From positions 32,005-96,004 of the forward strand of contig CAVVEW010000001.1 in NCBI GenBank assembly GCA_963747455.1: DNA of 64,000 nucleotides, in the 5' to 3' direction. Position numbers and translations under genes: made by a program. This stretch comes from an uncultured Candidatus Saccharibacteria bacterium (lineage in GTDB: Bacteria; Patescibacteriota; Saccharimonadia; Saccharimonadales; Saccharimonadaceae). The notes beneath the pieces are model-generated. The model saw nothing but the letters and a program-made list of their open reading frames with translations, did not search any database and was not told where the DNA came from. Positions within the stretch are counted from its first letter, which is position 1; each line of letters starts with the position of its first letter. Shown piece after piece: positions 1 to 40,014 of this stretch.

Positions 1-359
1 AGAATCTGAATCGGAAAGTTGAGAGAGTTTAGGAAGTTCTGGTAACTGTACTCCACACCTTCTCGTTCACGATTGCTCATGAGGTCGAAGTTGATAGATT
101 GACACGCGATAACTGCACGGTAAGAGCCATCTGCCATGATAATCATGCCGTCGCGGAGCTCAGAAAATAGGAGGCTTTTTTGTGCTGTTGTGCCATTGGT
201 TTGAGCTTTTTTTGCCTGCTCTGCGGCAGTTTGGGAGGCCGCAACACCAGCCGAGCCGACACCAAGAGGAGCTCCTGCTTGAGGGGCTTGTGGTTGTCCT
301 TGTGGTTGTACCGGCGGTTGTGGTGGAGTTGTTGCCGGTGGTTGGTTACTTGGTGGCAC
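1..359 (-). CDS. VirB4/TraC-like type IV secretion ATPase, N-terminal part (gene continues past window start)
   Basis: GTG at 359 preceded by AAGGAG (364-369); frame open to position 1. P/Q-rich linker, then LLFSELRDGMIIMADGSYRAVIACQSINFDLMSNREREGVEYSYQNFLNSLNFPIQI, which resembles the N-terminal block of Gram-positive-type VirB4 ATPases. Absent from the ORF track because it is truncated. Confidence 0.5.
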   Translation of the reverse strand, partial: MPPSNQPPATTPPQPPVQPQGQPQAPQAGAPLGVGSAGVAASQTAAEQAKKAQTNGTTAQKSLLFSELRDGMIIMADGSYRAVIACQSINFDLMSNREREGVEYSYQNFLNSLNFPIQI

Positions 360-388
360 GCCCACTCCTTATGTTCGTCAAACGGCGG

Positions 389-499
389 TTAGCGAAGTGA
401 TATGACAACTTCGCCTTCATCCTCTTTCTCATGAATGCGCTTTGCCTCATGAGCTATTGTCTCCACCGAGAGATTTTTCGAATTGTTTGCAAGGTTCAT
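389..499 (-). CDS. hypothetical 36-aa ORF between PrgI-like and VirB4-like genes
   Basis: ATG 499 to TAA 389: MNLANNSKNLSVETIAHEAKRIHEKEDEGEVVISLR. Below the ORF-track cutoff. Its ATG overlaps (TAATG) the stop of an alternative frame of the upstream gene. No homology recognised. Confidence 0.25.
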   Translation of the reverse strand: MNLANNSKNLSVETIAHEAKRIHEKEDEGEVVISLR

Positions 500-524
500 T
501 ATATCAGGTGACACCACCTTATCG

Positions 525-1382
525 CTAGTGCTTTGTTGGTGGCTCTGGTGTAGGGCTTGGCGCTGGTTTCGTCGGCTGCGGCAGGCTGAGCGCCCATAGG
601 CTGTATGACAGACTGGTGAATCGATGGGTATGGATTGTAATGAACAGATGCTGGTGTAATTTGTGGTTCTGGTTCAGGCATAGGCCGTGGTTGGTGTAAA
701 TTGCTGTGGCTGGACGAGCACCGGTGCTGCAATTGGGGCTGGCTGAGCCTGCAGGACGGGTGCCGGTGCTTGGGGGGTAGACGCTTGTGGGTGGGTAATG
801 TGATTCGATAACGTTTTTGCGCCTGACGGCATCGGCCTTATCGATGAGACTATCGATCGTCTGGGCGAGATTTCCTCCATCGTCGAGCATATCTTCGGCC
901 GTCTGGGCTTCGCTATAGACTTCGTTAGTCAGTGAGGTGCTCGCTGTCGGTGCGGCTGCGTGACGAATAGCCCAGCCGCGTGAGTCGGCGATATCTGCCA
1001 GGTAGGATAAACGGCGATCTGCCTCGTTGCCACCAAAGCTCTTTGTTAGACTCTCTTCTTCGGTCTTGGGTGCGGTGATTTCAACGATCTGCTCCACCCC
1101 GTCAGGTTTCCACAGGCGTTTACGGGGCTTGAGATAGTAGGATACCATCGCTGCGAGATACGTCTCCATGGGCTGATCTTTGCGCAAGGGCAGCGCAAGT
1201 GCTCCAAACAGTACGATGATCGGTAGTGGTAATATCGCGAGCGGTGGTAGCAATTTCCAAAGGCCGTACCCTAAAATACCTGCCATCGCAACGATGATCA
1301 GGTAGATAAACTGCCGAAACCCAAACGGGCCAACGAGTTTGTCGTCTGCTTCGACGTCTTGTGCTACTTTATAACTTGCCAT
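525..1382 (-). CDS. PrgI/VirB3-like T4SS membrane protein
   Basis: 285-aa ORF. The N-terminus MASYKVAQDVEADDKLVGPFGFRQFIYLIIVAMAGILGYGLWKLLPPLAILPLPIIVLFGALALPL is a short lead-in plus two TM helices, as in PrgI-family proteins that precede VirB4. The P/Q-rich C-terminal third has equally plausible alternative frames (ORFs 674-880 and 499-732), so the 3' end may be frameshifted. Confidence 0.5.
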   Translation of the reverse strand: MASYKVAQDVEADDKLVGPFGFRQFIYLIIVAMAGILGYGLWKLLPPLAILPLPIIVLFGALALPLRKDQPMETYLAAMVSYYLKPRKRLWKPDGVEQIVEITAPKTEEESLTKSFGGNEADRRLSYLADIADSRGWAIRHAAAPTASTSLTNEVYSEAQTAEDMLDDGGNLAQTIDSLIDKADAVRRKNVIESHYPPTSVYPPSTGTRPAGSASPNCSTGARPATAIYTNHGLCLNQNHKLHQHLFITIHTHRFTSLSYSLWALSLPQPTKPAPSPTPEPPTKH

Positions 1383-1402
1383 AACCTACACTATAGCAAA
1401 TA

Positions 1403-4102
1403 TTATTTCCACTTATCCTTAAACGTCGGATTCGTAACACTAATACTTCCGCCGAGTATGGTAGCCAGCTTTTTCATCTGCTCAACTTGGCGTGACTCAA
1501 GTTTAGCTCCGACATCTTTATCGTTTGCCGCTTCACTCATGGCGTCAACGAATCGCTGCTTTGCTTGAGGTGAAAGCGCGGTAAGAGTGGCAATGGCACT
1601 TGGGTCTGTTGCCCATTCGTTCATTTCATCGACATCCATACCACCAAGGTATTGGCCGTTTACTTTCGACCCCTTGGCGTCACCCTCGAGATCGCGTCTA
1701 ATTCGTTGATCTCTTGTCATCGTGAGCTGGCCATTTTCTAGCATTCCTCGGTCCGTTCCACTTAATGATTTTGGCATAAGCGGACTGCCGGCGAACGTAC
1801 GGTTGAGGTCACGCTGCAGTCGGACTACTGTTGCTTTTTGTGTTTCTGTCGCCCCGGGCGCCTGGGCGTCTGCACCCATTTGAACAAGATCTTCAACTAG
1901 ATCCTGCGTCGATTTTGCATTAGCAACTTCTTTAAAGCGCCTAAGAGCGGCAACTCTCTCATGATCCTTTAGGTTTGAATCATTTATTCTGATCATAAGT
2001 TCGTCTTTTGTACGCCCAGCTTTTTGCTCAAAGACCTGAGCGGCCTTAACGTCTTTCTCGAACTCATCTTCCTTTGCTTGAAGGGCGTATGACTGCACGA
2101 GCCCGCCAAGCTCCTTGTCGCCAGCTGCAAGTTTATTCGCGTATGCTACATCCGAACTTGCTCGATCGGCAACATAGTTACGCTCCCCTGCTTCGGCTGC
2201 TAGCTTAGCGTATCTATCTTTTTGCTCGCCCGTAATTCTATTGGCAGAGCCAATGCCGGCGACCCATGCTCGAGCTTTGCGCCTGCGACTGTGTGCGTCG
2301 CCGTATCTACTTCCGCCGCGCTCTCCATTCAGGATTTCTTGAGCTTTTGTAGCTTGGTTTCCACTTCGGAGGTTTTGTCGACGTTCGCTGTACCGGGCGC
2401 TCGCTTTTTTGGCGCGATCGAGCGGTCCGCGGTTTGGATTGTTGGTAAAACCGGCAATCTTGCCCATAATATTACTACTGGCACGCATAACACTGATTAC
2501 CAAGAACGCAGGTATTGCAAGTATTACAAGTGAAGCAACATAGAGGATACCACTAGTTGTCGTACTACGAATAATCTCTGAGGCGAGTTGCCCGGCACCA
2601 AAGAGTAGCGAGATAGTCGGAAACAATAAAAGCATCGCAAAAAATAACTTACGCCACTTAGTGAACCAGCTCTCCGTATTTGGAAGCAGATACGCCACAA
2701 ACGCAATGGTGAAAGGATAACGAGCATAATAATGATCGCTTGACGAGCAATTAAGAGGAATATAACTGTTAAAAATGCCATCAGTGCTGCAATCGCCCCA
2801 GGTATAAGTAGTGCTAGTGCGCCAAAAAATCCATACGATCCAACGGTTACGGCTGCTGTTCCAACCGCGAAAGCACAACCCCCCCAGCCAACAGCCACCC
2901 TGTGACTTCCGACCATGCGTTCAGATTATTATCTGCGCCATCAGCTACGATATTACCAAGCTGTACATCAAGAATGTTGTATATCGAGGTGCCTATGAGA
3001 TTTGATACATCGATGGCTAGGGCTGCAATCCAAAAAGACGCATTAACTAGAATTGCCGCAAGAATGAGCCGGGGAACCATCCGTTTGATACCATAATTGC
3101 TGAGCATTACTTTTTCGCCCCTCCTACCATCTGCGAGTAGATGATTATGAGAAATGCGACGATAAATAATACGTTAGCAAGGTTGCGCACATCCTTCCAG
3201 ATGCGGTAGGCCTCTGCATTTTTCCCTCCGAAGGATTGGTCGAAAACATCGACGAGTCCACTACGAGAAATTCTTTGATGATACCATATAAACTATCGTT
3301 TAATTTCGACATAAACGGCCACGGCTGGACAGACGATCCACCCGACTCCATCAATCTTGCAATCCTGTCGCACCTCTTCGCTGCAGGTTCCATCGGCGTT
3401 GTACGTCCCGCCACCATCTTCGCAGTCTGTTTAAGTTTGGTTTGATAGCTGCATCAAGTGTGGTGCCCCTTGTTTTTTGGCTTCATCCTCGACATTTTGC
3501 ATGGTTTGAAGTATAGTCCGATACGACTCGGTTCGTTTATTCGCTATACATCTAGCGACTGACATCGATGTTAATATCAGGAAATGTAAAGGTCGAACTT
3601 CCTTCATAGCCATTTTCATAAAACGCATTCATACACGTCGTCACCTGACTCTTCAGGATAGATTTACACTCATTTGCAATCTTTACATCTGAAGCGGTAT
3701 TGCTCGCCGGTCGACAAAATTTGTCGGCGAGCGCGGTATAGTAGATGTTTGTCACAGTAGAGGCCGCGGCAGCCTGGAGGGTTCTGGTTGTTGGCGGATA
3801 CGTCGACACAAGTGACTTTATAGCTCGGAGTGTACCACCGGGATTAGTGAGGTCACCCGTCGGGCTCGTACTAAATTTCGGGGTACACACTTCGTTACAA
3901 CTCTTGTCGTAGTCATCAATCGCGACAATCTTACCATTATATTTGCTGTAACAGGCTTTTTTCTGATCGTATGTCAGTGCGCTTGCGGATGGGCTGAAGC
4001 CATATGCAGCAAGAGTGAGCTGCACATCAGTACCCCAGCCATCATTACAAGTAGAGAGCGTCGAATATTCGCTGTGCCCCCAGCAACACGCTTATGTATC
4101 AT
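1403..4102 (-). CDS. giant VirB6/TrbL-like polytopic T4SS protein, paralogue 1 (multiple frameshifts in this assembly)
   Basis: Pieces in three frames join into one protein. They are the signal peptide MIHKRVAGGTANIRRSLLVMMAGVLM (ATG 4102), ORF 3552-4025, the motif CKIDGVGWIVCP (about 3300-3345), and ORFs 3145-3417, 2847-3107, 2524-2916 and 1403-2878. TM block MVPRLILAAILVNASFWIAALAID and FTKWRKLFFAMLLLFP, then a long charged tail. Paralogue of 5229-8225. Frame breaks lie at T5 runs 3111-3115 and 3229-3233. Confidence 0.6.
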
Positions 4103-4201
4103 AGGTATATTTAACAGCATTTACGGAGAAAAAGCTAGGACAAAACAAAAACCCCCAGGTAATTAAATGGGGGTTATTGTGTTTCTCGCTACTGCGTAGT
4201 C

Positions 4202-5066
4202 TTATGGTCGCTTAAAAAGCGATCCCTGACTGTGGTACATGAGTGTACCGTTCTCGTTTACGACGTACGTCACCACGAGTGGGCCAGCTGGCGACTTGGA
4301 GCCGATAACGAGACTCGGCATTTCTTTGCCGTCGACTGTCACGGTGTCTTCGTATGTTGCTTCCCTGCCGTCGGCCATGACCATCACCTTTATGTCAGTA
4401 GAAGTATTGTACTGACCTGTCGAAGACGCACCTTTCTCATTGAACATCTTGATATTTTCGAGCCAGCGCGCGAGCAGATCGTTGCTCTGGGGGTCGGTGT
4501 CTTCAAAGAACCCGTAAGCTATCTTCGTCGCATCGCTTACACTCTATTCTGCCGTTTTTAGGCGACGGCTTCGGACCGCCATAACGTGATTAAGTATCCA
4601 TTGTGTATCCTGTTCAGCAACGGGCTTATCGTCGCTCGGGACGAGATAATCTATAAGGGCTGTTCTGGGTACATCTACAGGATTTTTGGCCGGAGCCATG
4701 ACGATCCCTGGTGCATAATTTTCATCGTCATAGAGAGCCTGAAGCTTATCGTTTAGCCAGGCCGCACGCTCAGGGGCGGGAAGTTTTTCAAAGTCGATAG
4801 ACCAATCTCTTTTTCGGTGTCTGCCGTTACTGCAACTTCTGACGGACTAGGAGGGTGTCGGCTCTGCGGATGGCGAGGCGGTACTAGGAGGGGTCTCTTG
4901 TGAAGTACTGTGGGAGATTTGGTAGGAGTGCCCTCACCTATAGCAGATGCAGGACCACCAAAGCAACCGCTTAAGTTGGCGGCAAGTGTACCCATGCCAA
5001 GAAAGATCGACGAGGTCTCCTTACTCTGTTCCAGAGTTCGTGTCGGTTAGCCATAATGATTTTCAT
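4202..5066 (-). CDS. lipoprotein of the T4SS-like operon (frameshifted)
   Basis: ATG 5066 (or 5054). MKIIMANRHELWNRVRRPRRS, then in a shifted frame FLGMGTLAANLSGC (lipobox LSGC), an S/T/P-rich linker, DWSIDFEKLPAPERAAWLNDKLQALYDDENYAPG.., and ORF 4202-4447 as the C-terminus. At least 3 frame changes. Confidence 0.4.
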
Positions 5067-5128
5067 TTCCTTTCCGCTACTATAGCGGGTTACATCATAT
5101 TGTCGTGAAACAATGTATGTTTGTGTAC

Positions 5129-5159
5129 ACTATACCGCAAATGGTTAAAAAAGTCAATA
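5129..5159 (-). promoter_or_regulatory. sigma70-type promoter, conserved cassette copy a
   Basis: Minus strand reads TATTGACTTTTTTAACCATTTGCGGTATAGT. -35 TTGACT (5152-5157), 17-nt spacer, -10 TATAGT (5129-5134). Lies upstream of the lipoprotein gene. Confidence 0.45.
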
Positions 5160-5228
5160 CCTATGTGATTTTACAAATGTATTGCTAGGGGGCGCGAGGG
5201 GGTTTAAGGCCGGTTCCGGCTACATGGT

Positions 5229-8225
5229 CTATCTGGCGGTCGATAAGGTATTCATTTGGTGTTTCGACAGCACCTTAACTCGCGAGTGCCTGGGGGTCCC
5301 CGCCGGTACGCGCACACCGAATCTCGGGTCTTCGCTATCGTCGATATGGGTATTCATGTAGTAAATTTCTTTATGGATAGGAGGACGTGGGTCGGTAGGA
5401 TCGAGGTACGATGCAAGGACATTCATGATACCGCGCTCACGATCTTTGATGCGACCCTTGAGCATTGGGTTTGATTGAGCATCTTCGATGGCACGGAGGA
5501 TGGCCTAGTCGCCTCTTTTCAGGAATACTTTCACGGAAGTCTTCATTACGGTAGAGCTGCACCATACGTCCGAGCTCGTCTGGATCCATTGTTGACATGC
5601 GTTCTGGATCGTATTTACCACTGTTTGATTCGTATGCAATTAACTGTTCACTCATCGTGCTGAAGCCCTGCTCAGCCTTTACGCGGTATTGACCAGATTC
5701 CATGAGTGATCGCTGGGTTGAGGAGACGTAGCCAACCTTGAGTGGTGAGTTTGCGATTGCATCATTCATAATCTGCTGCATGTCACGGACATAGGTAACT
5801 TCTTCGCTATTTGCATCACCAACCAACGTTTTCGATCCATCCGTATTTACCTTGAAGTACGTATCGGTCGAGTCATCTCGCTCCAGTCCAAGTGTTGCAG
5901 ACCAGTCAATAATCTTCTGCGCCGCCCAGTTATTCCCAACGCCATTCATGACGCGTTGAATAGCAGCATGAATCTGGATCTCGTTTGCCTCAGATCCGTC
6001 TCGCATTTTCTTGTTCTCAATCACATTCATGAGCTCTTGTGCTTCATACCCTTCGTTCGTGTAGACGGAGTTGTAAGCTTTGACGTTCTCCATATGGAGG
6101 GCAGAGTGCTCGGAGCGTGCTTTCGCAAGCACCTTATCGGCACCAAGCTGATCGATACCACCGGCATATTCACGCGCGGACTGATCTGTGCGGAGGCGCT
6201 TCACTTCATTTGACTTGATCATGGTATCTGCGCTTGATTTACGCTTCTCTTGCTGGGCAATATCAAAGGTCAATTGGCCGAGGCGTTGCGTACGATCATC
6301 CATGGTTTGGCTACGAAGGTATTCGTCGACACCTTTTTGGAGACCGTCAAACTCGCTACCCTGGTAGCTGTTGACGCCGGCTTCCATCTCTCGGATGATT
6401 GCTTCGAACTTGTCTTCATCACGTTTCGCCTGGCTCTTGAGTTCGCGGGTGTTAAGTGTTGCGCGGTGAACACCCTGGTCAAAGTGGTGGCTGGTTGGGT
6501 CGAGCCGATTTTGCCAGTGTGCATCACCTGCAGCCTCAACTTGACCTTGGAACGTCTCAGCCTGCTTATGGAAGTCATGCGAATCGATAGCTCGTGTCTG
6601 CATGCGACGTCCGTAGCGACTCGATTCTTCGGCGATTTCGCGCTGACGAGAGGCATCTTGCCTGTTGTCGAGATACGACTCGTTGTCTTTTTTGGTCGCA
6701 TCGCGGCGGCGCTTTTGCTGGTCAAAGCGAAGGCCGAGTCGGGCTGCACCGCGGCCACGTGGGCTGAAGCGGCTGAGTTCGCCGTTTCGTCGGCGCTCGA
6801 CATCTTGCGCGGCATTGGCGAGCTTGTTGCTCTTGTGCATATCGGCATTGTCTTGTGCCCAGTTTCTCGCTCGGTCGGTTAGCCCCTTTTGCTTGTTGTT
6901 CGCCATATTGGCGATCTGACCGAGTACACCTGTGCTGAGGCGAGTAAGGAATGGCGTCAGAGCGAGCGGGATGACCTGGACGGTGAGACCGATGAGGAGC
7001 AGTGGAATCTGCATGGCTTCCGTGGCGTCTTTTGCTGTGCCGATAATTGCCGCCCCTGCGAGTTGCGACGCACCAAAGAGGAGGGCAAATGCTGGAAATA
7101 TGATGAGAAGGTTGGTAAATAGCTTGCGCCATTTGTCAAAAATCCCACGCGTGCTCGGTAGGATAAATGCGATAAATGCCAGTGGTGCGACGGCGGTCAA
7201 GACAACAATGAGCGCCTGGCGTGCTGCTAGGACGACAAAGGCTGCGAGTACGGAAAGCGCTGCGGATATCAGGGCCGCAAATATGATGAATCCCATCGAG
7301 GCCGCACTACCACCTGCTGCTGCAGCAAAACCGGCGATACCAATCGTGCCACCACCGAGTATTACGGCAGTCATGCTCGCCCAGTCAATATCTGTTGCTA
7401 CGGTATAGTTTTCTCTAATATTTACGAGGATTGCCTGAATTGAATATCCGAGAAGGTTTGAGGCATCGACTGCAAGGGCGCAGATCCAGAATGAGACATT
7501 GACGAGGATTGCGCCGATGATGAGCCGCGGTACCATGTCCTTGATGTTGTAGTTTGAGTATCCGGCGCCGGTAATCTGAGAGTAGATAATCACCATGAAA
7601 ACGATAAGGAAGGCGACGTTTGCGATATTACGCATAAGCTCCCAGAGCTGGTAGATTGCACTGTCGGTGGTGCTGATGGTTTGTACTTCGAGGAAGTTCG
7701 AGACGATGCTATATACCCAGTCGATACCGTCTGCGAGGTAGTTTGACAAGCGGACAGACCATCCAGCCTACGCCATCGATATTACAGTTGTTGTTGCCGG
7801 TTTGATTGGTGTCTTGCGCGTCGATAGTAAGGTCACGCGTGACGGTGACGGTTTGAGGGTTTGATGCTGCTGCAGTGAGGTAGTTGCCGCTGACGATTGG
7901 ATAGGAGATGAGGATGGCGCTATCTAGCCTGAGCGGGGTTGTCGGGGCCAAAGTACAGGACATTTGCCATCAGCGAATTGCCCGATCCTGAGCGCCACTC
8001 GTATTCATTTGGGGTGTCTGTTCGATCGGGGGGTGCGGTTACTTTGGTGTAGACACTGCCGTTGTAGGTTAGCTCGGTGCCCTTCCAGATAGCATCAGCA
8101 GCAAAGGCCTCCCGCGCGAGCGGTCCGACCGTGGTGAATGCCGGCATGAGAAAACTCAGTGCCAGTAGAATAATAAAGCGCCGAAAGTGTACCCTCGGCG
8201 CGCGTTGTTTACGCGTAACCCACAT
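5229..8225 (-). CDS. giant VirB6/TrbL-like polytopic T4SS protein, paralogue 2 (frameshifted)
   Basis: Main ORF 5437-7749 (770 aa) with MVPRLIIGAILVNVSFWICALAVD and FDKWRKLFTNLLIIFP. The N-terminal ectodomain is in ORFs 7920-8225 (signal peptide MWVTRKQRAPRVHFRRFIILLALSFLMPAF) and 7709-7963 (CNIDGVGWMVCP). The C-terminus continues in ORF 5229-5465 (AILRAIEDAQSNPMLKGRIKD..) after an extra G near 5500. Confidence 0.65.
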
Positions 8226-8234
8226 TACCTACCG

Positions 8235-8265
8235 ACTGTACCATTTTACAGATGAAAAGTCAATA
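8235..8265 (-). promoter_or_regulatory. sigma70-type promoter, conserved cassette copy b
   Basis: Minus strand reads TATTGACTTTTCATCTGTAAAATGGTACAGT. -35 at 8258-8263, 17-nt spacer, -10 TACAGT at 8235-8240. Only 9 nt separate the -10 from ATG 8225, so the leader is very short or absent. Confidence 0.45.
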
Positions 8266-8350
8266 CTTTAAGGTGTATTTCACTACGTACTTTGACGGCT
8301 GCGACCAGGTATTGCATAAATCGCTTATCTCACCTATTCTAGGAGGTAGG

Positions 8351-8735
8351 ATGAAACTCAAACAAACATTCCTCGGTTTTGCAACATTTGCTGCTCTCGT
8401 AAGCAGCTCGCTTGCTGTAGCGCCTAGTGCTCACGCCCTCGAATGTACCGTCCTTCCAGATAGTATCTGTGGCAAAGCAGATAACGGTACACTCGAAAGT
8501 AGCGGTACATGGGCGTTGTTGATCTTTATAATCCAGCTGCTGACAGCGGGTGTTGGACTGGTCGCTGTGGGTATGATTGCCTATGCGAGCTTTTTGTATA
8601 CCACCGCGCAAAGTGATGAATCGCAGACCAAACAAGCTAAAGAAATGATACGAAATGTTGTTGTCGGACTACTGGTATATGCCTTTATGTGGGCAGCTGG
8701 CACAGTGGCTCATACCGGGAGGAGTATTCGCATGA
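8351..8735 (+). CDS. VirB2/TrbC-like T4SS pilin paralogue P1 (frameshifted, fused to next ORF in this assembly)
   Basis: AGGAGG then ATG 8351. Signal peptide MKLKQTFLGFATFAALVSSSLAVAPSAHA, then a two-helix hairpin. A 1-nt shift near 8695 restores ..LAQWLIPGGVFA with TGA 8733-8735 overlapping the next ATG. As given it reads through (ORF 8252-9154). Confidence 0.5.
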
Positions 8736-9154
8736 TTCGGCAAATGATGAGCGCATTTTTGATAACGGCATCGCTCGCGGGAGTGGTTGCGGTCGCGAGT
8801 CCAGCGCAAGCCTCCGCGGCCTGTGGCCGTCTCGTCACCTTCCCTGCTTGGTATAACGGCTTAACAGATAAAAATTGTGAGCTTAAGCCAGTTGGACAAG
8901 CTGACACAAGCACCGAGGTAACACTGAAAACTTTTATCGTACGCATCCTCATGAATATTATCGAGATGATTTTACAGCTCGTTGCCTATGCGGCGGTCGT
9001 CATGCTGATCATCGGTGGCTTCCAATACATCACGAGTACTGGTGACTCTGGTAATATGTCCAATGCCAAAAAGACGATTCTCAACTCTATCATCGGTTTG
9101 ATTATCTCGCTATTTTCGGTGGCGATTGTAAATATAATTGCGAATGCGTTTTAG
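8732..9154 (+). CDS. VirB2/TrbC-like T4SS pilin paralogue P2
   Basis: GGGAGGAG RBS then ATG 8732. Signal peptide MIRQMMSAFLITASLAGVVAVASPAQASA. C-terminal hairpin LVAYAAVVMLIIGGFQYITSTGDSGNMSNAKKTILNSIIGLIISLFSVAIVNII. Confidence 0.6.
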   Translation: MIRQMMSAFLITASLAGVVAVASPAQASAACGRLVTFPAWYNGLTDKNCELKPVGQADTSTEVTLKTFIVRILMNIIEMILQLVAYAAVVMLIIGGFQYITSTGDSGNMSNAKKTILNSIIGLIISLFSVAIVNIIANAF

Positions 9155-9157
9155 GCT

Positions 9158-9451
9158 ATGAAAGAACTTCTCTATTTAGCAGCAACAAAGTTAGACGCAG
9201 GATCTGTGGGCATACCGAAGGTTGATGCCGATGGAGCTTCGGTTGCTAAGTTGCTCAACGTCGTCTATTTTTGGGCGGGCATGATTGCAGTTCTTGTGAT
9301 TGTTATCGCAGGATATTACTTCGTGCTTTCAAGGGGTGATGCAAACCAAGTCACCCGTGCACGAAATGCCATCATCGCGGCCGTGGTCGGGTTGATAGTC
9401 ATACTCATGGCATTTACCATAACGCAATTTATTTTAGGAAATGTTGGATAA
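9158..9451 (+). CDS. VirB2-like pilin paralogue P3 (no obvious signal peptide)
   Basis: 97-aa ORF. Hairpin VYFWAGMIAVLVIVIAGYYFVLSRGDANQVTRARNAIIAAVVGLIVILMAF matches the shared core of its neighbours. Confidence 0.55.
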   Translation: MKELLYLAATKLDAGSVGIPKVDADGASVAKLLNVVYFWAGMIAVLVIVIAGYYFVLSRGDANQVTRARNAIIAAVVGLIVILMAFTITQFILGNVG

Positions 9452-9460
9452 GGAGACTCT

Positions 9461-9829
9461 ATGTTAAAAAAATTACGCTACACACTCGCCCTCGTTGGCC
9501 TCGGCACGACAGTATTGTTGGCACCAGCAGCACCAGCACACGCCATAAATCTATTTCCCGACTGTAAAGGATCGAGCACGGCAGTGTGCAAAGCGACAAA
9601 TAATGATAACGCTTCGTCGCTGATACAAGATATTATCAACGTGTTGCTCTTTGTTATCGGCGCGGTGGCCGTAGTGATGATAATCATCGGTGGTATCAGG
9701 TACACTACCTCAAACGGCGATTCAAATAGAACAACCGCTGCAAAAAACACGATACTGTACTCTGTAGTTGGTCTGGTGGTAGCAATTATGGCCTCGGCTA
9801 TAGTAAACTTTGTACTATCGTATTTATAA
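9461..9829 (+). CDS. VirB2/TrbC-like T4SS pilin paralogue P4
   Basis: AAGGAG RBS. Signal peptide ending APAHA. Core VLLFVIGAVAVVMIIIGGIRYTTSNGDSNRTTAAKNTILYSVVGLVVAIMASAIVNFV. Confidence 0.7.
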   Translation: MLKKLRYTLALVGLGTTVLLAPAAPAHAINLFPDCKGSSTAVCKATNNDNASSLIQDIINVLLFVIGAVAVVMIIIGGIRYTTSNGDSNRTTAAKNTILYSVVGLVVAIMASAIVNFVLSYL

Positions 9830-9853
9830 AGTTAATAAGAAACGGATTTACTC

Positions 9854-10233
9854 ATGCGAAATATAACCTCACTCCTCGCCTCACTCACACTTATCGTCGG
9901 TAGTATCGTGGCATGTCACTTGCTCCGACACCTGCACTCGCTGCGTGTAGTGGAGTCAACTGTGCGAAAGCAGGTGCAAAGGCAGCTGACACTGGCAGTA
10001 CGAAGAAAACACCAAACGATCTGATAAAATCCGTCGTCAACGTCTTGCTATTTATTACGGGCGCAATTGCCGTGGTTATGATCGTTTTGGGTGGGTTGAA
10101 ATACACTACATCTAACGGCGATTCAAACCAAGTTACCTCTGCAAAAAACACTATCTTGTATGCTGTCATCGGACTCATCGTCGCGATCATGGCATATGCC
10201 ATCGTAAACTTTGTTATCACCTCATTTGTATAA
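9854..10233 (+). CDS. VirB2/TrbC-like T4SS pilin paralogue P5 (frameshift in signal peptide)
   Basis: ATG 9854 encodes MRNITSLLASLTLIVGSIV, then a frame shift near 9908 into ORF 9913-10233. Core LLFITGAIAVVMIVLGGLKYTTSNGDSNQVTSAKNTILYAVIGLIVAIMAYAIVNFV. Confidence 0.6.
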
Positions 10234-10312
10234 ACAGAGCTTTACTCCTAAAGGGTTTTTTGGTATAAACATATAAGAACGACGCTAGTAAAAAACAAGA
10301 AGGGATAACCTT

Positions 10313-10717
10313 ATGAAGCAACGTATCACAAAAATTTTAAATATCGCAATGGCATTGCCTGTCGCCGCACTTATCGCGAGCGCAGTCCTGCCTATGTCAC
10401 CAGCATTCGCTGTCACCTGTGACCCCGCAAATGGTCTCGATGGCTCAGCGGAGTGTGCGCAAGGTAACGGACAGCCTGATAATCTCGTCGGTAACGGTGG
10501 TATTTTCCAGACTGTAACAAACATTCTGCTCTTTATCATTGGTGCAGTAGCAGTCATCATGCTCGTCATCGGTGGTATTCGCTACACTATCAGCAATGGT
10601 GATAGCAACCAAGTTACGGCCGCAAAAAACACAATCCTGTACGCGATTATCGGTATCGTCGTAGCCATCCTGGCATACGCAGCGGTCAACTTCGTGATTA
10701 CAAGCTTCGCGGTCTAA
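10313..10717 (+). CDS. VirB2/TrbC-like T4SS pilin paralogue P6
   Basis: 134-aa ORF with a signal peptide ending PAFA. Core LLFIIGAVAVIMLVIGGIRYTISNGDSNQVTAAKNTILYAIIGIVVAILAYAAVNFV. Confidence 0.7.
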   Translation: MKQRITKILNIAMALPVAALIASAVLPMSPAFAVTCDPANGLDGSAECAQGNGQPDNLVGNGGIFQTVTNILLFIIGAVAVIMLVIGGIRYTISNGDSNQVTAAKNTILYAIIGIVVAILAYAAVNFVITSFAV

Positions 10718-10848: not shown

Positions 10849-11331
10849 TTACTGAACCATAATCTTCTTAGCTTGTTCTTGCTTGACCTTGTTGAAGGTG
10901 ATAGTAAGCACGCCGTCTTTTAGTACTGCTGCTACTTCTTCTTCCCTGACTTGAACTGGAAGTGCGAGGGTACGGTTGAATTCACCCCAGTAACACTCCT
11001 GTACATGCCAGTTTGTCGCATCTGAATCGTCACCACTACTTAGTGTGCCGCTAATAGATAGAATGCCATCAGAAATACTGACATCTAGATCTTCTTTGTT
11101 TACACCTGCGGTGCGTGCTTTTACGATTAATTGTTCGTCGGTTTCGTAGACGTCGACAGCGAGTTGACCGGGAAAATCATCTTGTTCTTGTTCCCAATCT
11201 TGTGAGTCATCCTGTGTCGGAGCCGCTTGTTGAGCAGGTTCAGCCACTGGGGTCGTCGTCGTGTCGTCGTCAAGAAAAGCTGCTGCCAGCTCGTCCTCGA
11301 TCAATAAATCGTCATTTTGCTTCCGGGCCAT
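10849..11331 (-). CDS. Hsp20/alpha-crystallin family small heat-shock protein
   Basis: ATG 11331 six nt after GGAGGA (the ORF-track start at 11343 is an upstream GTG). Acidic N-terminus, then an alpha-crystallin-type domain FPGQLAVDVYETDEQLIVKARTAGVNKEDLDVSISDGILSISG...LKDGVLTITF. Promoter TTGATT-17-TATAAT lies upstream. Confidence 0.8.
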   Translation of the reverse strand: MARKQNDDLLIEDELAAAFLDDDTTTTPVAEPAQQAAPTQDDSQDWEQEQDDFPGQLAVDVYETDEQLIVKARTAGVNKEDLDVSISDGILSISGTLSSGDDSDATNWHVQECYWGEFNRTLALPVQVREEEVAAVLKDGVLTITFNKVKQEQAKKIMVQ

Positions 11332-11441
11332 GATATCCTCCACTTTTCTCTAGGCTCTAATTTGACGTCTAGTCTAAAACAAATTATAACCAGTATATAT
11401 ACTATAATCAAGAACTATCAGGGGTATACGTAAAAATAACA

Positions 11442-12113
11442 ATGATATCTGCTCTAAAAAACCTTATTTTACCCGACTACTGTTGCTCTTGCGGTGATAT
11501 TGGCGCAATTATATGTGAAAATTGTAAATATGACATCGTTTCTGATATTCCTCAGCTTTGCGTTGCCTGCCGAGTGCCGCAAAGTCGTGATGGTGTGTGT
11601 GGATCGTGCGCCCTCCCCTATACTCACTCCTGGTACGTCGGTGACCATCGAGGGGCGCTGGAGTCTCTTGTCGCTGTGAGTAAGTTTAATGCAAACCGCA
11701 GTGGATGCGACGCGCAAGCAGGGCTGATTAACCATATCCTGCCGAGTCTGCCAACTGGTACCGTGATTGTGCCAGTCCCAACGATAGCAAAACACATTCG
11801 ACAGCGAGGTTATGGGCATGCCGAACGCATCGCTAGGCAGCTCGCACGCCTCCGTGGGGTACAGTCGCGACGTGTCGTCGGTCGAAATGCACAGTTTGTT
11901 CAACACGGTGCCAATCGTACGACGCGTCAAAAACAAGCAAAAAGTTCGTACATACTGACAGAGAAGCTCGAGCCGAATGTGACGTATGTGATTGTCGATG
12001 ACGTGTTTACGACTGGCTTTACGACGCAGTATGTTGCGCAAACACTTCGTGATGGAGGCGCGAGTGATGTGTGGGTCGCAGTCACCTCTCGCCAGCCTAT
12101 CGACGAGAAGTGA
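11442..12113 (+). CDS. comF: ComF-family protein (phosphoribosyltransferase domain, ComFC-like)
   Basis: N-terminal Cys clusters (CCSCG..CENC..CVAC..CGSC) plus C-terminal PRTase motif YVIVDDVFTTGFT. Confidence 0.7.
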   Translation: MISALKNLILPDYCCSCGDIGAIICENCKYDIVSDIPQLCVACRVPQSRDGVCGSCALPYTHSWYVGDHRGALESLVAVSKFNANRSGCDAQAGLINHILPSLPTGTVIVPVPTIAKHIRQRGYGHAERIARQLARLRGVQSRRVVGRNAQFVQHGANRTTRQKQAKSSYILTEKLEPNVTYVIVDDVFTTGFTTQYVAQTLRDGGASDVWVAVTSRQPIDEK

Positions 12114-12151: not shown

Positions 12152-12239
12152 GGAGAGGTGACCGAGTGGTTTAAGGTACTTGTCTTGAAAACAAGCGTGG
12201 GGCAACTCACCGCGAGTTCGAATCTCGCCCTCTCCGCCA
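12152..12239 (+). tRNA. tRNA-Ser (anticodon TGA)
   Basis: GGAGAGG acceptor, anticodon stem-loop CTTGT-CTTGAAA-ACAAG, long variable arm, T-arm GCGAG-TTCGAAT-CTCGC, encoded CCA. TATAAT at 12123-12128. Confidence 0.9.
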
Positions 12240-12435: not shown

Positions 12436-12831
12436 CTAGACGTTTGTTCCCGACGTGCTGCCAGGCGCAAAGCTACCGATTACAAAGTTGACGGCTGCGT
12501 AGGCTAGGATTGCGACCACGATACCGATGATTGCATACAAAATTGTATTTTTTGCCGCGGTAATCTGGTTTGAGTCACCACCCGAGAGAACGTAGCGCAT
12601 ACCACCGATGACAATCATGATGACGGCGATTGCTCCGATGATGAAGAGTAGAACATTGGTGATAGTTGAGAAGGTGCCATTTGCTCCGAAAAGTTCAACT
12701 GGTTGACCCTGGCCACGAGCTGCGTTTGCTCCATTTTGCACACCATCGACTGCATAGACGCCAGGAGCGAGGTAGAGTGAGGTTGCGGATATGACGGCGA
12801 GGCTGAGGACTGCTGATAATAGCGTTTTCAT
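12436..12831 (-). CDS. VirB2/TrbC-like T4SS pilin paralogue P7 (stand-alone copy)
   Basis: 131-aa ORF with a signal peptide ending PGVYA. Core LLFIIGAIAVIMIVIGGMRYVLSGGDSNQITAAKNTILYAIIGIVVAILAYAAVNFV. Protein is near-identical to P6 in the core, with many synonymous nucleotide differences. Confidence 0.7.
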   Translation of the reverse strand: MKTLLSAVLSLAVISATSLYLAPGVYAVDGVQNGANAARGQGQPVELFGANGTFSTITNVLLFIIGAIAVIMIVIGGMRYVLSGGDSNQITAAKNTILYAIIGIVVAILAYAAVNFVIGSFAPGSTSGTNV

Positions 12832-13187: not shown

Positions 13188-13280
13188 GGAGGAGTACCCA
13201 AGTGGCTGAAGGGGACGGTTTGCTAAATCGTTAGTGTGGGGAGACCTGCAGCGGGAGTTCGAATCTCCCCTCCTCCGCCA
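13188..13280 (+). tRNA. tRNA-Ser (anticodon GCT)
   Basis: GGAGGAG acceptor, anticodon loop TTGCTAA, long variable arm, T-arm GGGAG-TTCGAAT-CTCCC, encoded CCA. Confidence 0.9.
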
Positions 13281-14728: not shown

Positions 14729-14805
14729 GCACCCGTAGCTCAGCTGGATAGAGCATCGGCTTGCGGAGCCGAAGGCCATAGGTTCGAATCCTGTCGGGTG
14801 TACCA
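14729..14805 (+). tRNA. tRNA-Arg (anticodon GCG)
   Basis: GCACCCG acceptor, D-arm TAGCTCAGCTGGATAGAGC, anticodon stem-loop TCGGC-TTGCGGA-GCCGA, T-arm ATAGG-TTCGAAT-CCTGT, encoded CCA. Confidence 0.85.
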
Positions 14806-15839: not shown

Positions 15840-16790
15840 ATGCGTTATATAGCAAATAGAATCTATAATGAATTCTCTGGTACCTCATATGGCCAGAGTT
15901 TGGCGGAATACCCAAGGTATGATCGGTTCATGCCGGAAGGTTGGCTCGTGGACCAATGGGGGCTACTCATGGGTGACGACATGAATAACTTGTACCATAT
16001 GAGAGAAACGATTGAAAACGCGTGCTGGTTAATTGAAAATGAAAACCAGATTCAACCAGGTACGTTCTCTTTTGAGGATGCAGTGAAACTCACAATCACT
16101 GCTGCCCTACACGATCAAGGCGAAGCGATTGTTGGAGATATTGAGTATGGACGCAAAACCGCCGATAAAGAAATGGCTGAACGTACCGCTTTACGAGACT
16201 ACGAATCTGTGTTTGTACCGGGATTGAGCGGACGAGCACTTGATATATATCGTATTGGCCGCGACGAAATTGCGTTTGGTGATAAAAACGAAAAATTGCC
16301 AGGGGCATTTACTACCATTGAACTTATAGGATTCATCAACAATACGTTGCGTGCTCTTCAGCAACTAAGACGGTTAAGCGGAGTAGATATGTCTGATCGA
16401 AAGCTGATGGCAATGGGAATCCGAAATGATTCTGATCGCCACACTGCAAGAGAGGTTCTTGAGCGTTTAGTCGCTGAAGTACTGGGTAGTGGAGTGCTCG
16501 AAATGTTAATACGTATGGCTAATCGCTATTCTGGAGCGAACCAGTACCTAAAGGCGCATTCGAGTGAGATAAGTTTAGGATTTAATCAAATAAGTCAAAA
16601 AGCGTTTGATTGGTACGAATCCGAAGATCCAGGCGCGGTTGAAGGCGAAAAAAGTAGTCGCATAGAAAAGTTCAATCGCCAAAAATTAATTTGGGAGCGA
16701 TGGTCAGATTCTGAAAATGTAGCCACAATTTCACGGCTAGGAGTTACTGCTACAACTGACGCCTTGTCAGAAATCGGTGATTCAATGTGA
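15840..16790 (+). CDS. HD-domain phosphohydrolase (YfbR/5'-deoxynucleotidase-like)
   Basis: 316 aa. AALHDQGEAIVGDI matches the HD...GD metal-binding signature of HD_3/YfbR-type enzymes. TACTAT lies 7 nt before the ATG. Confidence 0.5.
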   Translation: MRYIANRIYNEFSGTSYGQSLAEYPRYDRFMPEGWLVDQWGLLMGDDMNNLYHMRETIENACWLIENENQIQPGTFSFEDAVKLTITAALHDQGEAIVGDIEYGRKTADKEMAERTALRDYESVFVPGLSGRALDIYRIGRDEIAFGDKNEKLPGAFTTIELIGFINNTLRALQQLRRLSGVDMSDRKLMAMGIRNDSDRHTAREVLERLVAEVLGSGVLEMLIRMANRYSGANQYLKAHSSEISLGFNQISQKAFDWYESEDPGAVEGEKSSRIEKFNRQKLIWERWSDSENVATISRLGVTATTDALSEIGDSM

Positions 16791-16854
16791 TGCTTGCAAA
16801 TTAGGGTATTACATTACCCTATATTATGGCTACGACGTGTGTTTTAATGATGGT

Positions 16855-17775
16855 ATGAGTGAACAATTTCCTAGCACAAGCCCAATTGATGAACCAGTAG
16901 AGAGCTCTATAGACCATACGTCGTCGCATGAGCAGCTCGATTTGGAGGTACCTTTGCCAGAGGAGATACAGCGCCTGATGGATTTGATGCACGACCGTAA
17001 TCTTGAGCATCTCCCTACTATGGAGCATCGTACAAATCACTTATTCTTGGGGCACGCGGGAATCGGAGGTTTACTGACCCAACCAAAATTTGACCAGGAC
17101 CCAGAAAGGCGCAAAGAGCTCCTTAGGATTGACGTTGCAAAAACCTACCTTCGCATACTGACATTGGCTGAAGCACTGGGCACTCCCGATGAATTTACTG
17201 CTAAGTTTGTAGAGCAATACGAAAAATGTCATAGATGCGGTCAAAACCCATGCGTCTGCAACCCCAGTGAGGCCGGTTTTGAAAGTGAGCAACCTACTGC
17301 AACTGAGATACATGCAGGATCAAGCCTTTCTGAATGGCAGGCACACCTCAAAAGGTTGTACGGGGGCAATAATGCACTACGCGACCTAGAGTGGATGGGC
17401 TTAAAGCTTGGCGCCGAGCTGGGTGAATCAATCACAGAGGTAACGCGAATGCAGAAAGCCATTCAGGCTGGCGGTAGCCCGGAGCAAGTAGAAGAATATC
17501 GACAGAGAGCTCTCGAAGAGCTAGCTCAAGTCACCGCATGGCTCCTTGGCATATGTGTTCACCCTGACGCGCGTCTTAACAATCAGGAAATAAATCTTGA
17601 ACAAATCCTGGTAGATTTATACGGCGATGGCTGCCCTAACTGTGGTCAGATGCCGTGCCAATGCGGACCATTCGGACTCGAGGAAACCCGCAAAGATGAG
17701 ACAGCGCCAGTATTACTAGAAATACTTAGGATGAAAGATGAGCAACGAGCTTCGGCACAAAGTGTTGATGCATGA
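16855..17775 (+). CDS. tandem MazG-like (all-alpha NTP pyrophosphohydrolase-like) protein with two CxxCGQxPCxC knuckles
   Basis: Start taken at MSEQFPSTSP (ATG 16855). Two helical modules (..RIDVAKTYLRILTLAEALG.. and ..LGAELGESITEV..EELAQVTAWLLGI..) end in KCHRCGQNPCVC and GCPNCGQMPCQC respectively. Confidence 0.35.
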   Translation: MSEQFPSTSPIDEPVESSIDHTSSHEQLDLEVPLPEEIQRLMDLMHDRNLEHLPTMEHRTNHLFLGHAGIGGLLTQPKFDQDPERRKELLRIDVAKTYLRILTLAEALGTPDEFTAKFVEQYEKCHRCGQNPCVCNPSEAGFESEQPTATEIHAGSSLSEWQAHLKRLYGGNNALRDLEWMGLKLGAELGESITEVTRMQKAIQAGGSPEQVEEYRQRALEELAQVTAWLLGICVHPDARLNNQEINLEQILVDLYGDGCPNCGQMPCQCGPFGLEETRKDETAPVLLEILRMKDEQRASAQSVDA

Positions 17776-20811: not shown

Positions 20812-20903
20812 TGGCGGAGAGGAAGAGATTCGAACTCTCGGTACGAGTCGCCCCGTACACACGCTTTCCAAGCGTGCGCCTTCAACCGCTCGGCCACCTC
20901 TCC
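20812..20903 (-). tRNA. tRNA-Ser (anticodon GGA)
   Basis: Minus strand reads GGAGAGGTGGCCGAGCGGTTGAAGGCGCACGC-TTGGAAA-GCGTG..., long variable arm, GAGAG-TTCGAAT-CTCTT, CCA. Confidence 0.9.
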
Positions 20904-21147: not shown

Positions 21148-22008
21148 ATGCCGACCAAAAAACCTATTATCCGTTTGAACGGTCTCGTAAAAAAGTACGG
21201 GATTGGTGACGCTGAGCACCGAGCACTCGATACGGTCGATTTATCGATCGATGCGGGTGAGTTCGTGGCTATCATGGGGCCGTCGGGATGCGGCAAGACG
21301 ACGCTACTCAATATCTTGGGTCTGCTCGACCGTGCAGATGATGGCGAATACCTACTCGACAACGAGGACGTTGAGCAATTCTCTGATCGGCGCCGTGCAC
21401 ACGTTCGCTCAAAACAAATCGGCATCGTATTTCAAAACTTCAACCTGATTGATCGCATGACCGTAATCGAAAACGTCGCCCTTCCTCTGACCTATCATGG
21501 TTTGCGGCGTACAAAGCGCCTCGAAGCTGCGAGCCAATCGCTCAAGACATTTCATCTCTCTGAGCGAGAGTATTATCTGCCCCATCAGCTATCTGGTGGA
21601 CAAATGCAACGCGTGGCGATCGCACGTGCGCTCGTAAACAAGCCTACCCTCATCTTGGCCGACGAGCCAACTGGTAATCTCGACAGCCGCTCAAGTCACG
21701 TCATCATGGAAGAGCTAGCGGATTTGCACCGTCGTGGAAACACAATTCTTATGGTGACTCATAATCCCAATCTAACAAGTTATGCGAGTCGTGTAATCAA
21801 CATGCTCGATGGTCGTGTGGCGAGTGACAAGAAGATTCGGGTTTCGGCGGTATCGGATGTCCAGAAGATTACGCTCCGTACACCGAAGAAGACGAAAGCC
21901 GAGGAAAAGCCTACGAAAAAAGCGACGAGTAAGAAAAAGTCGACCAAGACCGCAACAAAGAAGCGAGTGACCGCAAAAAATGCGAAGAAAAAGGAGAAAA
22001 CGTCGTGA
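21148..22008 (+). CDS. ABC transporter ATP-binding protein (MacB/LolD-like) with Lys-rich C-terminal tail
   Basis: Walker [10 protein letters not shown], signature [15 protein letters not shown], Walker [13 protein letters not shown]. 60-aa K/T-rich tail. Confidence 0.85.
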
Positions 22009-23223
22009 GAATGCTCATCGCTGACTATATCGATACCGCTGCGCACTCGCTTCGCATGAACAGGATGCGAACGCTCCTCACTACCGTTGGAGTTGCAATA
22101 GGTATTGCGAGCGTTACGACGATTCTGGCACTCGCGCAGGGCGTAACCTCTGCGGTGAACAGCCAAGTGAACCAAGTCGGCGGAAATGTCGCGGTCATTC
22201 GACCTGGTGTCGAAACGCCGAGTGATTTGACGCGTCCCATTCTGCCCCAGCAGTTCAACACGAGCAGCTTAACAGAGAATGATGTCGAGGCTATACGTAC
22301 AGCAAACAAGGGGCTTACCGTTGCGCCTATCATGACGCTAAACGCAACCCTTCGATCGAAAACATCTACTGTTCCAACTACCTTGGTTGCGAGTTCACCT
22401 GAACTGGCTAAGACGACCGATTTACCGATAGATCAAGGACAGTTTCTCGATGAAAGTACCTCGGACAATGTCGCTATCGTTGGTCGGCAGCTCTCGATTG
22501 ATCTGTTCGGTACAGATAACCCAATCAGTCAGCAGTTTAAGGTTCAGAGGAGAGACGTTCACCGTTATCGGCGTACTGAAGATGCTCGACAATCCAGTCA
22601 ATTACAACAATGTAGATTTTGATAATGCCGCAGTAATCACTTTCCGCCAGGGGAAGTCGCTCAACGATGGGCGTACGCAGATTCAGCAAATAAATATCCG
22701 TGCCAGCAGCCCTGAGGAGCTAGAAAAAGCAATCGATTCGATTTCTACACAATTGAAAAAACTTCACGGCGAAGATGACTTCCAAATCCTCACTGGCACC
22801 GATGTTGCATCGACGACCAATCGCACCTTTCAATGGGTGGCAGCAGTCATGACAGCAATTGCCGCAGTATCGCTACTCGTAGGTGGGATTGGCATCATGA
22901 ATATCATGCTCGTCGGGGTCGCAGAACGTACGCGCGAAATTGGTATCCGAAAGAGTGTGGGTGCAAGTAATGGCACGATCGTGATTCAGTTTATGGTTGA
23001 GGCATTGATGCTTAGCTTGCTCGGCGGCATCGTCGGTGTTATTGCAGGTCTGGTACTTGCGTTCTCACTATCGCTCGGTCTCTACTTTACACCGGTCTTT
23101 TCATGGCAGATTTTTGCTCTGGCGCTTGGCGTATCACTCGTTGTGGGCGTCATATTTGGCCTTTATCCTGCAATACGTGCTGCGCGAAAAGACCCTATCG
23201 AGAGTCTTCGACAGTACAGATAG
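22005..23223 (+). CDS. ABC transporter permease, MacB/FtsX-like (frameshift near 22555)
   Basis: ORFs 22005-22622 and 22450-23223 join at ..ISQQFKV/GETFTVIGVLK... The C-terminal FtsX block IGIRKSVGASNGTIVIQFMVEAL is present. Start overlaps the ATPase stop (GTGA). Confidence 0.75.
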
Positions 23224-25685: not shown

Positions 25686-25757
25686 CGTACCTCCCCTTCG
25701 TGAAATGTTGCCCTGAGGGCAACAACGAAACTCCCGCTTAAGCAAGGAGTTGAATGA

Positions 25758-25786
25758 ATTATATAACTTTATATAAAAAAAAGCAA
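25758..25786 (-). promoter_or_regulatory. sigma70-type promoter of the sigma4-like gene
   Basis: Minus strand has TTGCTT (25781-25786), a 17-nt spacer and TATAAT (25758-25763). The -35 overlaps the groEL terminator stem. Confidence 0.4.
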
Positions 25787-25808
25787 GACCGTCGCAAAAC
25801 GGTCTTGC
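25783..25808 (-). terminator. groEL terminator
   Basis: GCAAGACC gtcgcaaaac GGTCTTGC, followed on the minus strand by T8. Confidence 0.7.
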
Positions 25809-25825
25809 TTTCGCAGAGGGTGAAT

Positions 25826-39926: not shown

Positions 39927-40014
39927 GGAGAGGTGCAGGAGTGGTTGAACTGGCCGCTCTCGAAAAGCGGTAAGCCGCAAGGTTTCGAGGGTTCGAATCC
40001 CTCTCTCTCCGCCA
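39927..40014 (+). tRNA. tRNA-Ser (anticodon CGA)
   Basis: GGAGAGG acceptor, anticodon stem-loop CCGCT-CTCGAAA-AGCGG, long variable arm, T-arm GAGGG-TTCGAAT-CCCTC, CCA. Terminator hairpin at 40018-40058. Confidence 0.9.

Follow-up and report, generated by a model that had tools for sequence, protein, structure and literature searches.

Two extended VirB6-like genes in a probable Patescibacteria-type type IV secretion locus of an uncultured Candidatus Saccharibacteria bacterium

We analysed 64,000 nucleotides from an uncultured Candidatus Saccharibacteria bacterium (assembly GCA_963747455.1, contig CAVVEW010000001.1, positions 32,005 to 96,004 of the forward strand). This whole stretch is referred to below as the window, and all coordinates are those of the window. 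Its left end carries genes related to components of type IV secretion systems (T4SSs). From position 8225 to position 1, all on the minus strand and separated by gaps of 20–160 nt, lie a VirB6/TrbL-like gene (paralogue A), a lipoprotein gene (lipoprotein B), a second VirB6/TrbL-like gene (paralogue C), a PrgI/VirB3-like gene and the start of a TrsD-like gene. Beyond a divergent intergenic region (8226–8350) an array of VirB2-like pilin genes runs in the other direction, on the plus strand (8351–10717). An earlier interpretation based on the letters and open reading frames (ORFs) alone, hereafter the sequence-only reading, had rightly seen one co-directional minus-strand gene string in 8225–1. 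It called the operon minimal, a description that does not survive the discovery of six divergent pilin genes immediately upstream and a seventh nearby. We conclude that positions 1–8225, together with the divergent pilins, very probably form a chromosomal Patescibacteria-type T4SS locus whose frame lesions are most likely consensus errors and whose mechanism can be sketched by analogy with known systems.

None of the long genes in 1–8225 can be read in a single frame; they were resolved by frameshift-aware protein-to-DNA alignment against homologues. Paralogue A (5229–8225, minus strand), the counterpart of SEML1_0013 of Southlakia epibionticum ML1, is an extended VirB6/TrbL-like protein of 997 residues once three single-nucleotide repairs are made (one base skipped each at approximately 7922–7937, at 7750 and at 5502–5505), and homologues are collinear with it across four frames. 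Its longest intact piece (7767–5440) is identical to a 732-residue ORF in public records (on a 333,734-bp contig), and therefore the deposited assembly has the same lesions. The best homologue other than itself shares only 42–60% identity.

The corrected sequence of A was modelled with AlphaFold2 (AF2) from a 73-sequence alignment, with a mean predicted local distance difference test score (pLDDT) of 76.5. At the N-terminus, hydropathy and an AF2 helix mark a signal or anchor helix (8118–8198, minus strand; residues 10–36), followed by a cleavage-like site, AFA|AD. There follows an ectodomain of seven predicted beta-strands (7835–8093, minus strand; residues 45–130; pLDDT mostly 67–90) and then the motif CNIDGVGWMVCP (7751–7786, minus strand), which is read from the sequence and contains two cysteines. 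All of 73 family members have C147 and C157, and at least 90% keep G153 and W154. Because both cysteines are invariant, this Cys-GxGW-Cys loop is probably disulfide-bonded, and probably extracellular. The polytopic membrane block (6901–7659, minus strand; residues 189–441) comprises some six to seven helices according to both hydropathy and AF2: six to seven hydrophobic segments fall between residues 196 and 426 and are paralleled by AF2 helices, at least five being taken as diagnostic. Inside this block lies a VirB6-like core (7296–7069). The remainder of the protein is a mostly helical tail of about 527–550 residues (5232–6882, minus strand; AF2 helices with pLDDT 70–96), 31% of which are D, E, K or R; it is presumed to be cytoplasmic.

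Paralogue C (1403–4120, minus strand), the counterpart of SEML1_0011, is likewise an extended VirB6/TrbL-like protein, of about 898 residues after at least seven repairs. By frameshift-aware comparison with C-type orthologues, its lesions were located at 3313–3322, 3204–3255, 3115, 2870–2897 and 2706; two or three more lie in an N-terminal ectodomain that cannot be aligned. The ectodomain is Cys-rich and about 270 residues long, and the tail about 430. The motif CKIDGVGWIVCP (3326–3361, minus strand) was read directly from the sequence and aligned to that of A. After correction the two proteins are 37% identical over 415 residues (E 7e-72), with a second, weak match in the tails, and have in common the C-x5-GxGW-xx-CP motif, the polytopic block with its shared stretch MVPRLI..AILVN.SFWI.ALA.D.SNL, and the charged helical tail. 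A and C are paralogues. Both combine a hydrophobic block with one or more large hydrophilic domains in at least 700 residues, and their architecture fits the class described in the literature as extended VirB6. The sequence-only reading had proposed two giant paralogues of about 1000 and 900 residues with the shared block, the charged tails and a Cys motif in each, and all of this stands; its position for the C motif was some 15–20 nt off (the motif runs 3361–3326), and its mention of frame repair understated the damage, which amounts to at least 15 lesions in 8.2 kb.

The PrgI/VirB3-like gene (389–1382, minus strand), which the sequence-only reading had also named, encodes about 330 residues after two repairs in a P/Q-rich linker and matches Pfam PF12666 (E 5e-11; 43.4 bits, gathering score 27). 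A 36-residue ORF at 499–392 (MNLANN...DEGEVVISLR), previously taken to be a separate gene, is the conserved C-terminal end of PrgI, parted from the rest by two frameshifts; we assign it so because it aligns to the C-terminal end of the PrgI of a relative (locus L002), the alignment reaching the terminal DEGEVLISLR. The last gene, which had been read as the start of a VirB4-like ATPase, is instead the N-terminus of a separate TrsD/TraC-like gene (1–365, minus strand) that is related to the VirB4 N-domain and continues beyond position 1 of the window. The last 60 or so residues are nearly identical to a 276-residue TraC-like (PF26593) protein of a second relative (locus L001), and the fragment matches NCBIfam TrsD weakly (E 1.2e-3). 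A PrgI/VirB3-like gene here adjoins a TrsD-like gene, the one that in relatives precedes virB4.

All six genes of the plus-strand pilin array, divergent from A, score above the PF18895 gathering score: pilin 1 at 8351–8729 (with a frameshift at 8699), pilins 2 and 3 at 8726–9154 and 9158–9451, and pilins 4, 5 and 6 at 9461–9829, 9913–10233 and 10313–10717. One of the six additionally matches PF04956 (TrbC/VirB2), and the pilins of the window are orthologous to those of L001. Pilins 2 and 3 (8726–9451) are two genes, separated by a stop, 3 nt and an ATG at 9158, where L001 has one 246-residue double-pilin ORF (8736–9476). A seventh paralogue stands apart from the array on the minus strand (12436–12831), just after a tRNA-Ser (12152–12239), and is 85% identical to a similarly placed PF18895 protein of L001 (2375–2767). 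A promoter and terminator scan of the intergenic region 8226–8350 gave a promoter-like match at 8263–8235 (minus strand), but such matches occur region-wide at chance level.

The arrangement is not peculiar to this genome. Gene order and Pfam content are equal in the loci of three relatives (L001–L003), and the neighbourhoods of homologues have a fixed layout: one strand carries four to six T4SS_pilin genes, and the opposite strand carries TrbL_3, a gene of about 280 residues, a second TrbL-like gene, PrgI, a TraC-like gene, a DUF87/P-loop_TraG ATPase and a large VanY-domain protein. The cluster also corresponds gene for gene, in order and sizes, to SEML1_0009–0019 of ML1. In ML1, L001 and L002 the locus continues with VirB4 and then a cell-wall hydrolase, and the left edge of the window falls before both; in L001 and L002 the ATPase (608–609 residues, DUF87/P-loop_TraG) lies directly 3' of the TrsD-like gene. 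VirB4 in these relatives takes the form of two abutting genes (L001 18878–21537; L002 14167–16965), a TraC-like/TrsD gene of 276–323 residues and then a 608-residue ATPase, which overlap by 1 nt or directly adjoin; the window stops within the first.

Loci of this type are already known, having been described in an experimental study of ML1 (PMC10633639, Wang et al. 2023), a phylum-wide survey (PMC12102498, Quinonero-Coronel et al. 2025) and a review (PMC12857230), and the window adds no new kind of system. The ML1 locus (SEML1_0006–0019) is essential for epibiotic growth by transposon sequencing (Tn-seq; PMC10633639). That study lists as essential SEML1_0013 (1088 residues, Foldseek 'TrbL/VirB6'; NE at the first time point), SEML1_0011 (998 residues, 'Type IV secretion system protein'), SEML1_0010 (PrgI, 300 residues, 903 bp), SEML1_0009 (293 residues, 882 bp; a hypothetical protein there, TrsD-like according to PMC12102498), the VirB4-type ATPase SEML1_0008 (612 residues, 1839 bp) and the pilins SEML1_0014–0016 (399, 558 and 312 bp), three of the pilin genes SEML1_0014–0019; SEML1_0012 (278 residues, NTF2-like, e4ec6D1) is non-essential. 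In published Tn-seq data, with which the sequence-only reading had proposed a comparison, the ML1 orthologues of A and C are both essential; the idea in that reading of a host-contact or transfer apparatus agrees with a T4SS but is not new, the locus type being published and its essentiality established. The likeness to the ML1 and other Patescibacteria T4SSs extends to pilins followed on the opposite strand by a TrbL/VirB6-like protein of about 1000–1100 residues, a lipoprotein of about 280, a protein of about 1000, PrgI and a TrsD-like protein, to VirB2-like pilins in a monoderm, and to the absence of an adjacent relaxase or coupling protein. The window differs from ML1 in that it comes from a distant species, that its lipoprotein has no detectable similarity to positional counterparts, and that its genes are frame-broken.

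The three sources relate the system to the conjugation machines of monoderms (mating-pair-formation class MPF_FATA) and describe VirB2-like pilin arrays with no adjacent relaxase or coupling protein. Like the MPF_FATA systems (PrgH/PrgI/PrgJ of pCF10; TrsC/TrsD/TrsE of pGO1), the locus has PrgI/VirB3-like, TrsD-like and VirB4 modules and is without an outer-membrane core (no VirB7, VirB9 or VirB10). It is unlike them in being chromosomal, in having pilins, which they lack, in its much larger and duplicated VirB6-like proteins, in the absence of a relaxase or type IV coupling protein (T4CP) from the locus, and in its essentiality, in ML1, on the host. The relationship raises the question of whether the locus is the mating-pair-formation module of a DNA-transferring conjugative or integrative element whose relaxase and coupling protein are encoded elsewhere. 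The VirB4 proteins of Patescibacteria cluster with those of the MPF_FATA conjugation class, many of the genomes encode T4CP homologues elsewhere (PMC12102498), and a ComF/GntX-like gene adjoins the pilin array. Nevertheless, no relaxase, coupling protein or integrase was found among some 50 window ORFs scanned with Pfam (most of those of at least 120 residues in the 64 kb, including all of at least 434), whose matches outside the locus are to housekeeping families only. The locus is chromosomal, its gene order is the same in relatives and ML1, and homologous loci occur in hundreds of Saccharibacterial species; moreover, relaxases are rare in Patescibacteria, and in ML1 a distant T4CP is non-essential while the T4SS is essential. 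We regard a conjugative element as extremely unlikely. The sequence-only reading had likewise seen neither relaxase nor coupling protein and had judged that the operon does not look like a canonical conjugation machine; PMC10633639 and PMC12102498 also conclude that the system is not one.

Homology of A and C to VirB6 was assessed from structure and from sequence profiles. Searched with the AF2 model of A, Foldseek returned R388 TrwI/VirB6 at ranks 1 to 7 of the PDB (best E 0.013, probability 0.99). A TrwI profile, built from the R388 record and its homologues, was aligned by hhalign to the A-type profile (E 7.6e-5, probability 62%) and to the C-type profile (E 2.3e-4, probability 44%) over one and the same conserved core, AARQAlI..SPLAFVAylLPnTe..F.KW in the A/C family against LLAKIAL..GPLFILALIWQPTHRFFDQW in TrwI. 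TrbL is the sole Pfam family matched in 44 family members, the best score belonging to homologue P0064 (23 bits, E 7.7e-5, profile positions 2–204 of 215). A precomputed PF19590 (TrbL_3) label is carried by the window's own ORF P0001 and by most homologues; the TrbL_3 model gave no match in the local library. On this evidence homology of A and C to VirB6 is likely but remote.

Several observations weigh against the reading as a whole. Pfam TrbL (PF04610, gathering score 25.9 bits) does not match the window pieces of A and C, as is also the case for TrbL in NCBIfam when the raw pieces are searched, and of the 44 family members only three reach E≤0.01. The TM-scores that Foldseek gives against TrwI are low (0.28–0.39) and no E-value reaches 0.001, so that the similarity to VirB6 expected by the sequence-only reading appears in ranks, profile alignments near 1e-4 and TrbL_3 labels but not at Pfam or Foldseek thresholds; the solved TrwI structure shows, however, the assembled stalk conformation, so low TM-scores are no surprise. 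Searching the PDB sequences with the family profile yielded only noise from poly-Q and charged low-complexity tails. VirB4 itself lies outside the window. Thirteen of the frame lesions crowd into 2.7–5.5 kb, about 4.6 per kb compared with about 0.4 per kb in other genes examined, a density that uniform sequencing error does not explain. Finally, every mechanistic step would be by analogy, the data for each paralogue being essentiality calls by Tn-seq in another species.

With no TrbL match in the window proteins, A and C might be polytopic envelope proteins, permease-like or O-antigen-ligase-like, that are unrelated to VirB6 and stand within a T4SS locus by chance. The ML1 table attaches the KEGG label K01992 to both orthologues and 'ABC transporter permease' to SEML1_0013 only, one homologue carries the source name 'oligosaccharide repeat unit polymerase', and there is a weak O-antigen_lig match (E 0.88). 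Yet no Pfam family other than TrbL is matched by any family member, VirB6 chains fill the first seven structural ranks, two independent profiles align the same core to TrwI, and in every locus inspected A/C-type proteins hold the VirB6 position between pilins and VirB3/VirB4. An unrelated origin is thus very unlikely.

As VirB6-like proteins, A and C resemble TrwI of R388 in their polytopic block with its conserved core and in their position beside VirB3/VirB4 and pilins; they differ in being some three times longer, with a signal or anchor helix, a Cys-loop ectodomain and a charged tail of 450–550 residues, and in matching VirB6/TrbL below the Pfam gathering score. Closer in form are the extended VirB6 proteins of Rickettsiales arrays and the MPF_FA VirB6 proteins of 700–900 residues (PMC12857230, PMC7648143), which likewise have at least five hydrophobic helices and large hydrophilic C-proximal domains, occur as several paralogues per locus and belong to reduced-genome, host-dependent bacteria. 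Unlike these, the type in the window belongs to a monoderm with VirB2-like pilins, has a conserved, probably extracellular Cys-GxGW-Cys loop, and comes as just two paralogues, or as one in half of the related species.

The last figure derives from a scan of one genome per species, which confirmed 561 or more related loci; 80 were kept, nearly all of these labelled Saccharibacteria or Saccharimonadia. Among the 43 loci (within L004–L083) with sufficient flanking sequence, 23 contain a pair of VirB6-like paralogues and the other 20 a single copy. Single-copy forms score equally with A-type and C-type models and represent an intermediate form. In Nanosynbacter-type loci (L077, L078, L081, L083 and L038) the order is reversed, the C-type gene lying upstream of the A-type gene.

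Between the paralogues lies lipoprotein B (approximately 4202–5066, minus strand), recognised as such by the sequence-only reading. It has a lipobox (ANLSGC) and about 290 residues spread over at least three frames, with one in-frame TAG (4546). The lipobox region aligns to the counterpart in L001, and in relatives the slot holds a gene of 260–425 residues. In ML1 the slot is that of SEML1_0012, listed as NTF2-like with e4ec6D1 as its best ECOD match. We take 4EC6 to be TraM of pIP501, a VirB8-like protein. By its position B could be a VirB8/NTF2-like component, a fold that the searches neither confirm nor exclude, and the earlier claim that no VirB8 is present is accordingly unsafe. A word-seeded protein search with B found no homologue, and phmmer with its C-terminal domain (4205–4846, minus strand) against 1.84 billion cluster representatives recovered only its own ORF fragments; two phmmer matches of B to repeat proteins (cadherin-like and Ig-like) were judged spurious. 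A hidden Markov model of the positional counterparts scored B below significance (E 0.02–0.5), their profile had no match among PDB sequences, and single-sequence AF2 gave a pLDDT of 34, too low to use.

The lesions themselves may reflect assembly error or real decay. The hot-spot spans the N-terminal half of C (the ectodomain and the beginning of the membrane block), the gene for the lipoprotein and the 3' end of A, and stretches to either side (1403–2700 and 5505–7750) read cleanly. Such a concentration, with in-frame stops left after repair at 3433 and 4546, is what might be seen if genuine decay had set in across the cluster, or in C and the lipoprotein gene at the minimum, and the T4SS were non-functional or down to one VirB6-like subunit; for 20 of the 43 related species one VirB6-like copy near the locus suffices, and the ML1 counterpart of the lipoprotein is non-essential. 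Against decay, all lesions locatable by comparison with an orthologue are 1-nt indels, most of them within short base runs, invariant motifs are intact up to the lesion on either side (for example SPL|AFVAYLLPNTE at 2706), a third apparent stop disappears with a frameshift pair, and the ML1 orthologues of A and C are essential. Genes elsewhere in the window are split too, essential housekeeping genes included: ribonucleotide reductase (47089–49510), a MacB/FtsX permease (22005–23223), a GT4 glycosyltransferase (42725–43859), GroEL (25600–27300, with a fragment at 26534–27295), the Mur ligase region (32330–34718) and a conserved 221-residue protein (about 14480). Most likely, then, the lesions are errors in the consensus of a noisy assembly rather than marks of pseudogenes, and decay of the cluster is improbable. 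The hot-spot could plausibly stem from a consensus drawn from a strain mixture in surface parts that evolve fast; less likely, the hot-spot is real and the lineage is shedding its second paralogue and the lipoprotein. The many indel errors mean that gene calls from this assembly are not to be trusted at face value.

Three further ideas about the lesions were considered. Phase variation at a G7 run near 2876 was rejected, the frame being restored by an added G at GTG|GCT downstream and the seven Gs reading as codons GGG GGG G. An alternative genetic code for the stops was rejected as well, only two in-frame stops remaining and homologues being read with code 11. A methylation-type motif common to the lesion sites was also weighed; GGC lies near several of them, not convincingly above chance.

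To the right of the pilin array, 10849–12113 holds an HSP20 gene (minus strand) and a ComF/GntX-like phosphoribosyltransferase gene with a double zinc ribbon (plus strand), which flank the array as they do in relatives; earlier literature places a competence-related GntX gene in the corresponding region of TM7x. ARAGORN found five tRNAs in the 64 kb (12152–12239, 13188–13280, 14729–14805, 20812–20903 and 39927–40014), four tRNA-Ser (tga, gct, gga, cga) and one tRNA-Arg (gcg). Rfam confirmed four of them at the gathering score and gave no match for tRNA-Ser (cga) at 39927–40014. Among the ORFs scanned with Pfam, those at 15840–17775, 53401–54705, 28377–29174 and 31296–32129 had no match; the first (plus strand) consists of ORFs of 316 and 332 residues overlapping by 14 nt, with no match at E≤1e-4, and the second (plus strand) is a 434-residue ORF with none at E≤1e-3.

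How such a locus might work can be outlined from the R388 T4SS structure (summarised in PMC12857230) and the ML1 Tn-seq data (PMC10633639). PrgI, TrsD and VirB4 would make up a membrane-anchored motor, and the membrane base for pilus assembly would come from the pair of extended VirB6-like proteins, which may form a mixed oligomer. By analogy, VirB2-like pilins would be drawn from the membrane and polymerised on this base, giving a pilus or a conduit through the wall towards the host bacterium. The VirB6-like ectodomains, with their invariant Cys-GxGW-Cys loop, would face outward; the charged helical tails (450–550 residues) would lie in the cytoplasm, where docking of the ATPase or of cargo is a possible role for them, one that may make up for there being no coupling protein next to the locus. 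What is transported would probably be protein, or something other than conjugative DNA. More speculatively, and with considerable doubt, A and C might form a mixed oligomer whose outward domains would replace the VirB5/VirB6 stalk of diderms and nucleate a VirB2-type pilus in a monoderm, the tails taking over substrate docking from the missing coupling protein.

No T4SS before the Saccharibacterial one had been reported as essential to the growth of the bacterium carrying it. Within this system, paired extended VirB6-like genes are a lineage trait, and the lipoprotein that lies between them evolves so fast that no homologue is detectable. The invariant, probably extracellular Cys-GxGW-Cys loop and the conserved VirB6-like core are natural targets for mutagenesis in genetically tractable strains. 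If the mixed-oligomer reading is true, the locus would encode a pilus-bearing, T4CP-independent channel between epibiont and host.

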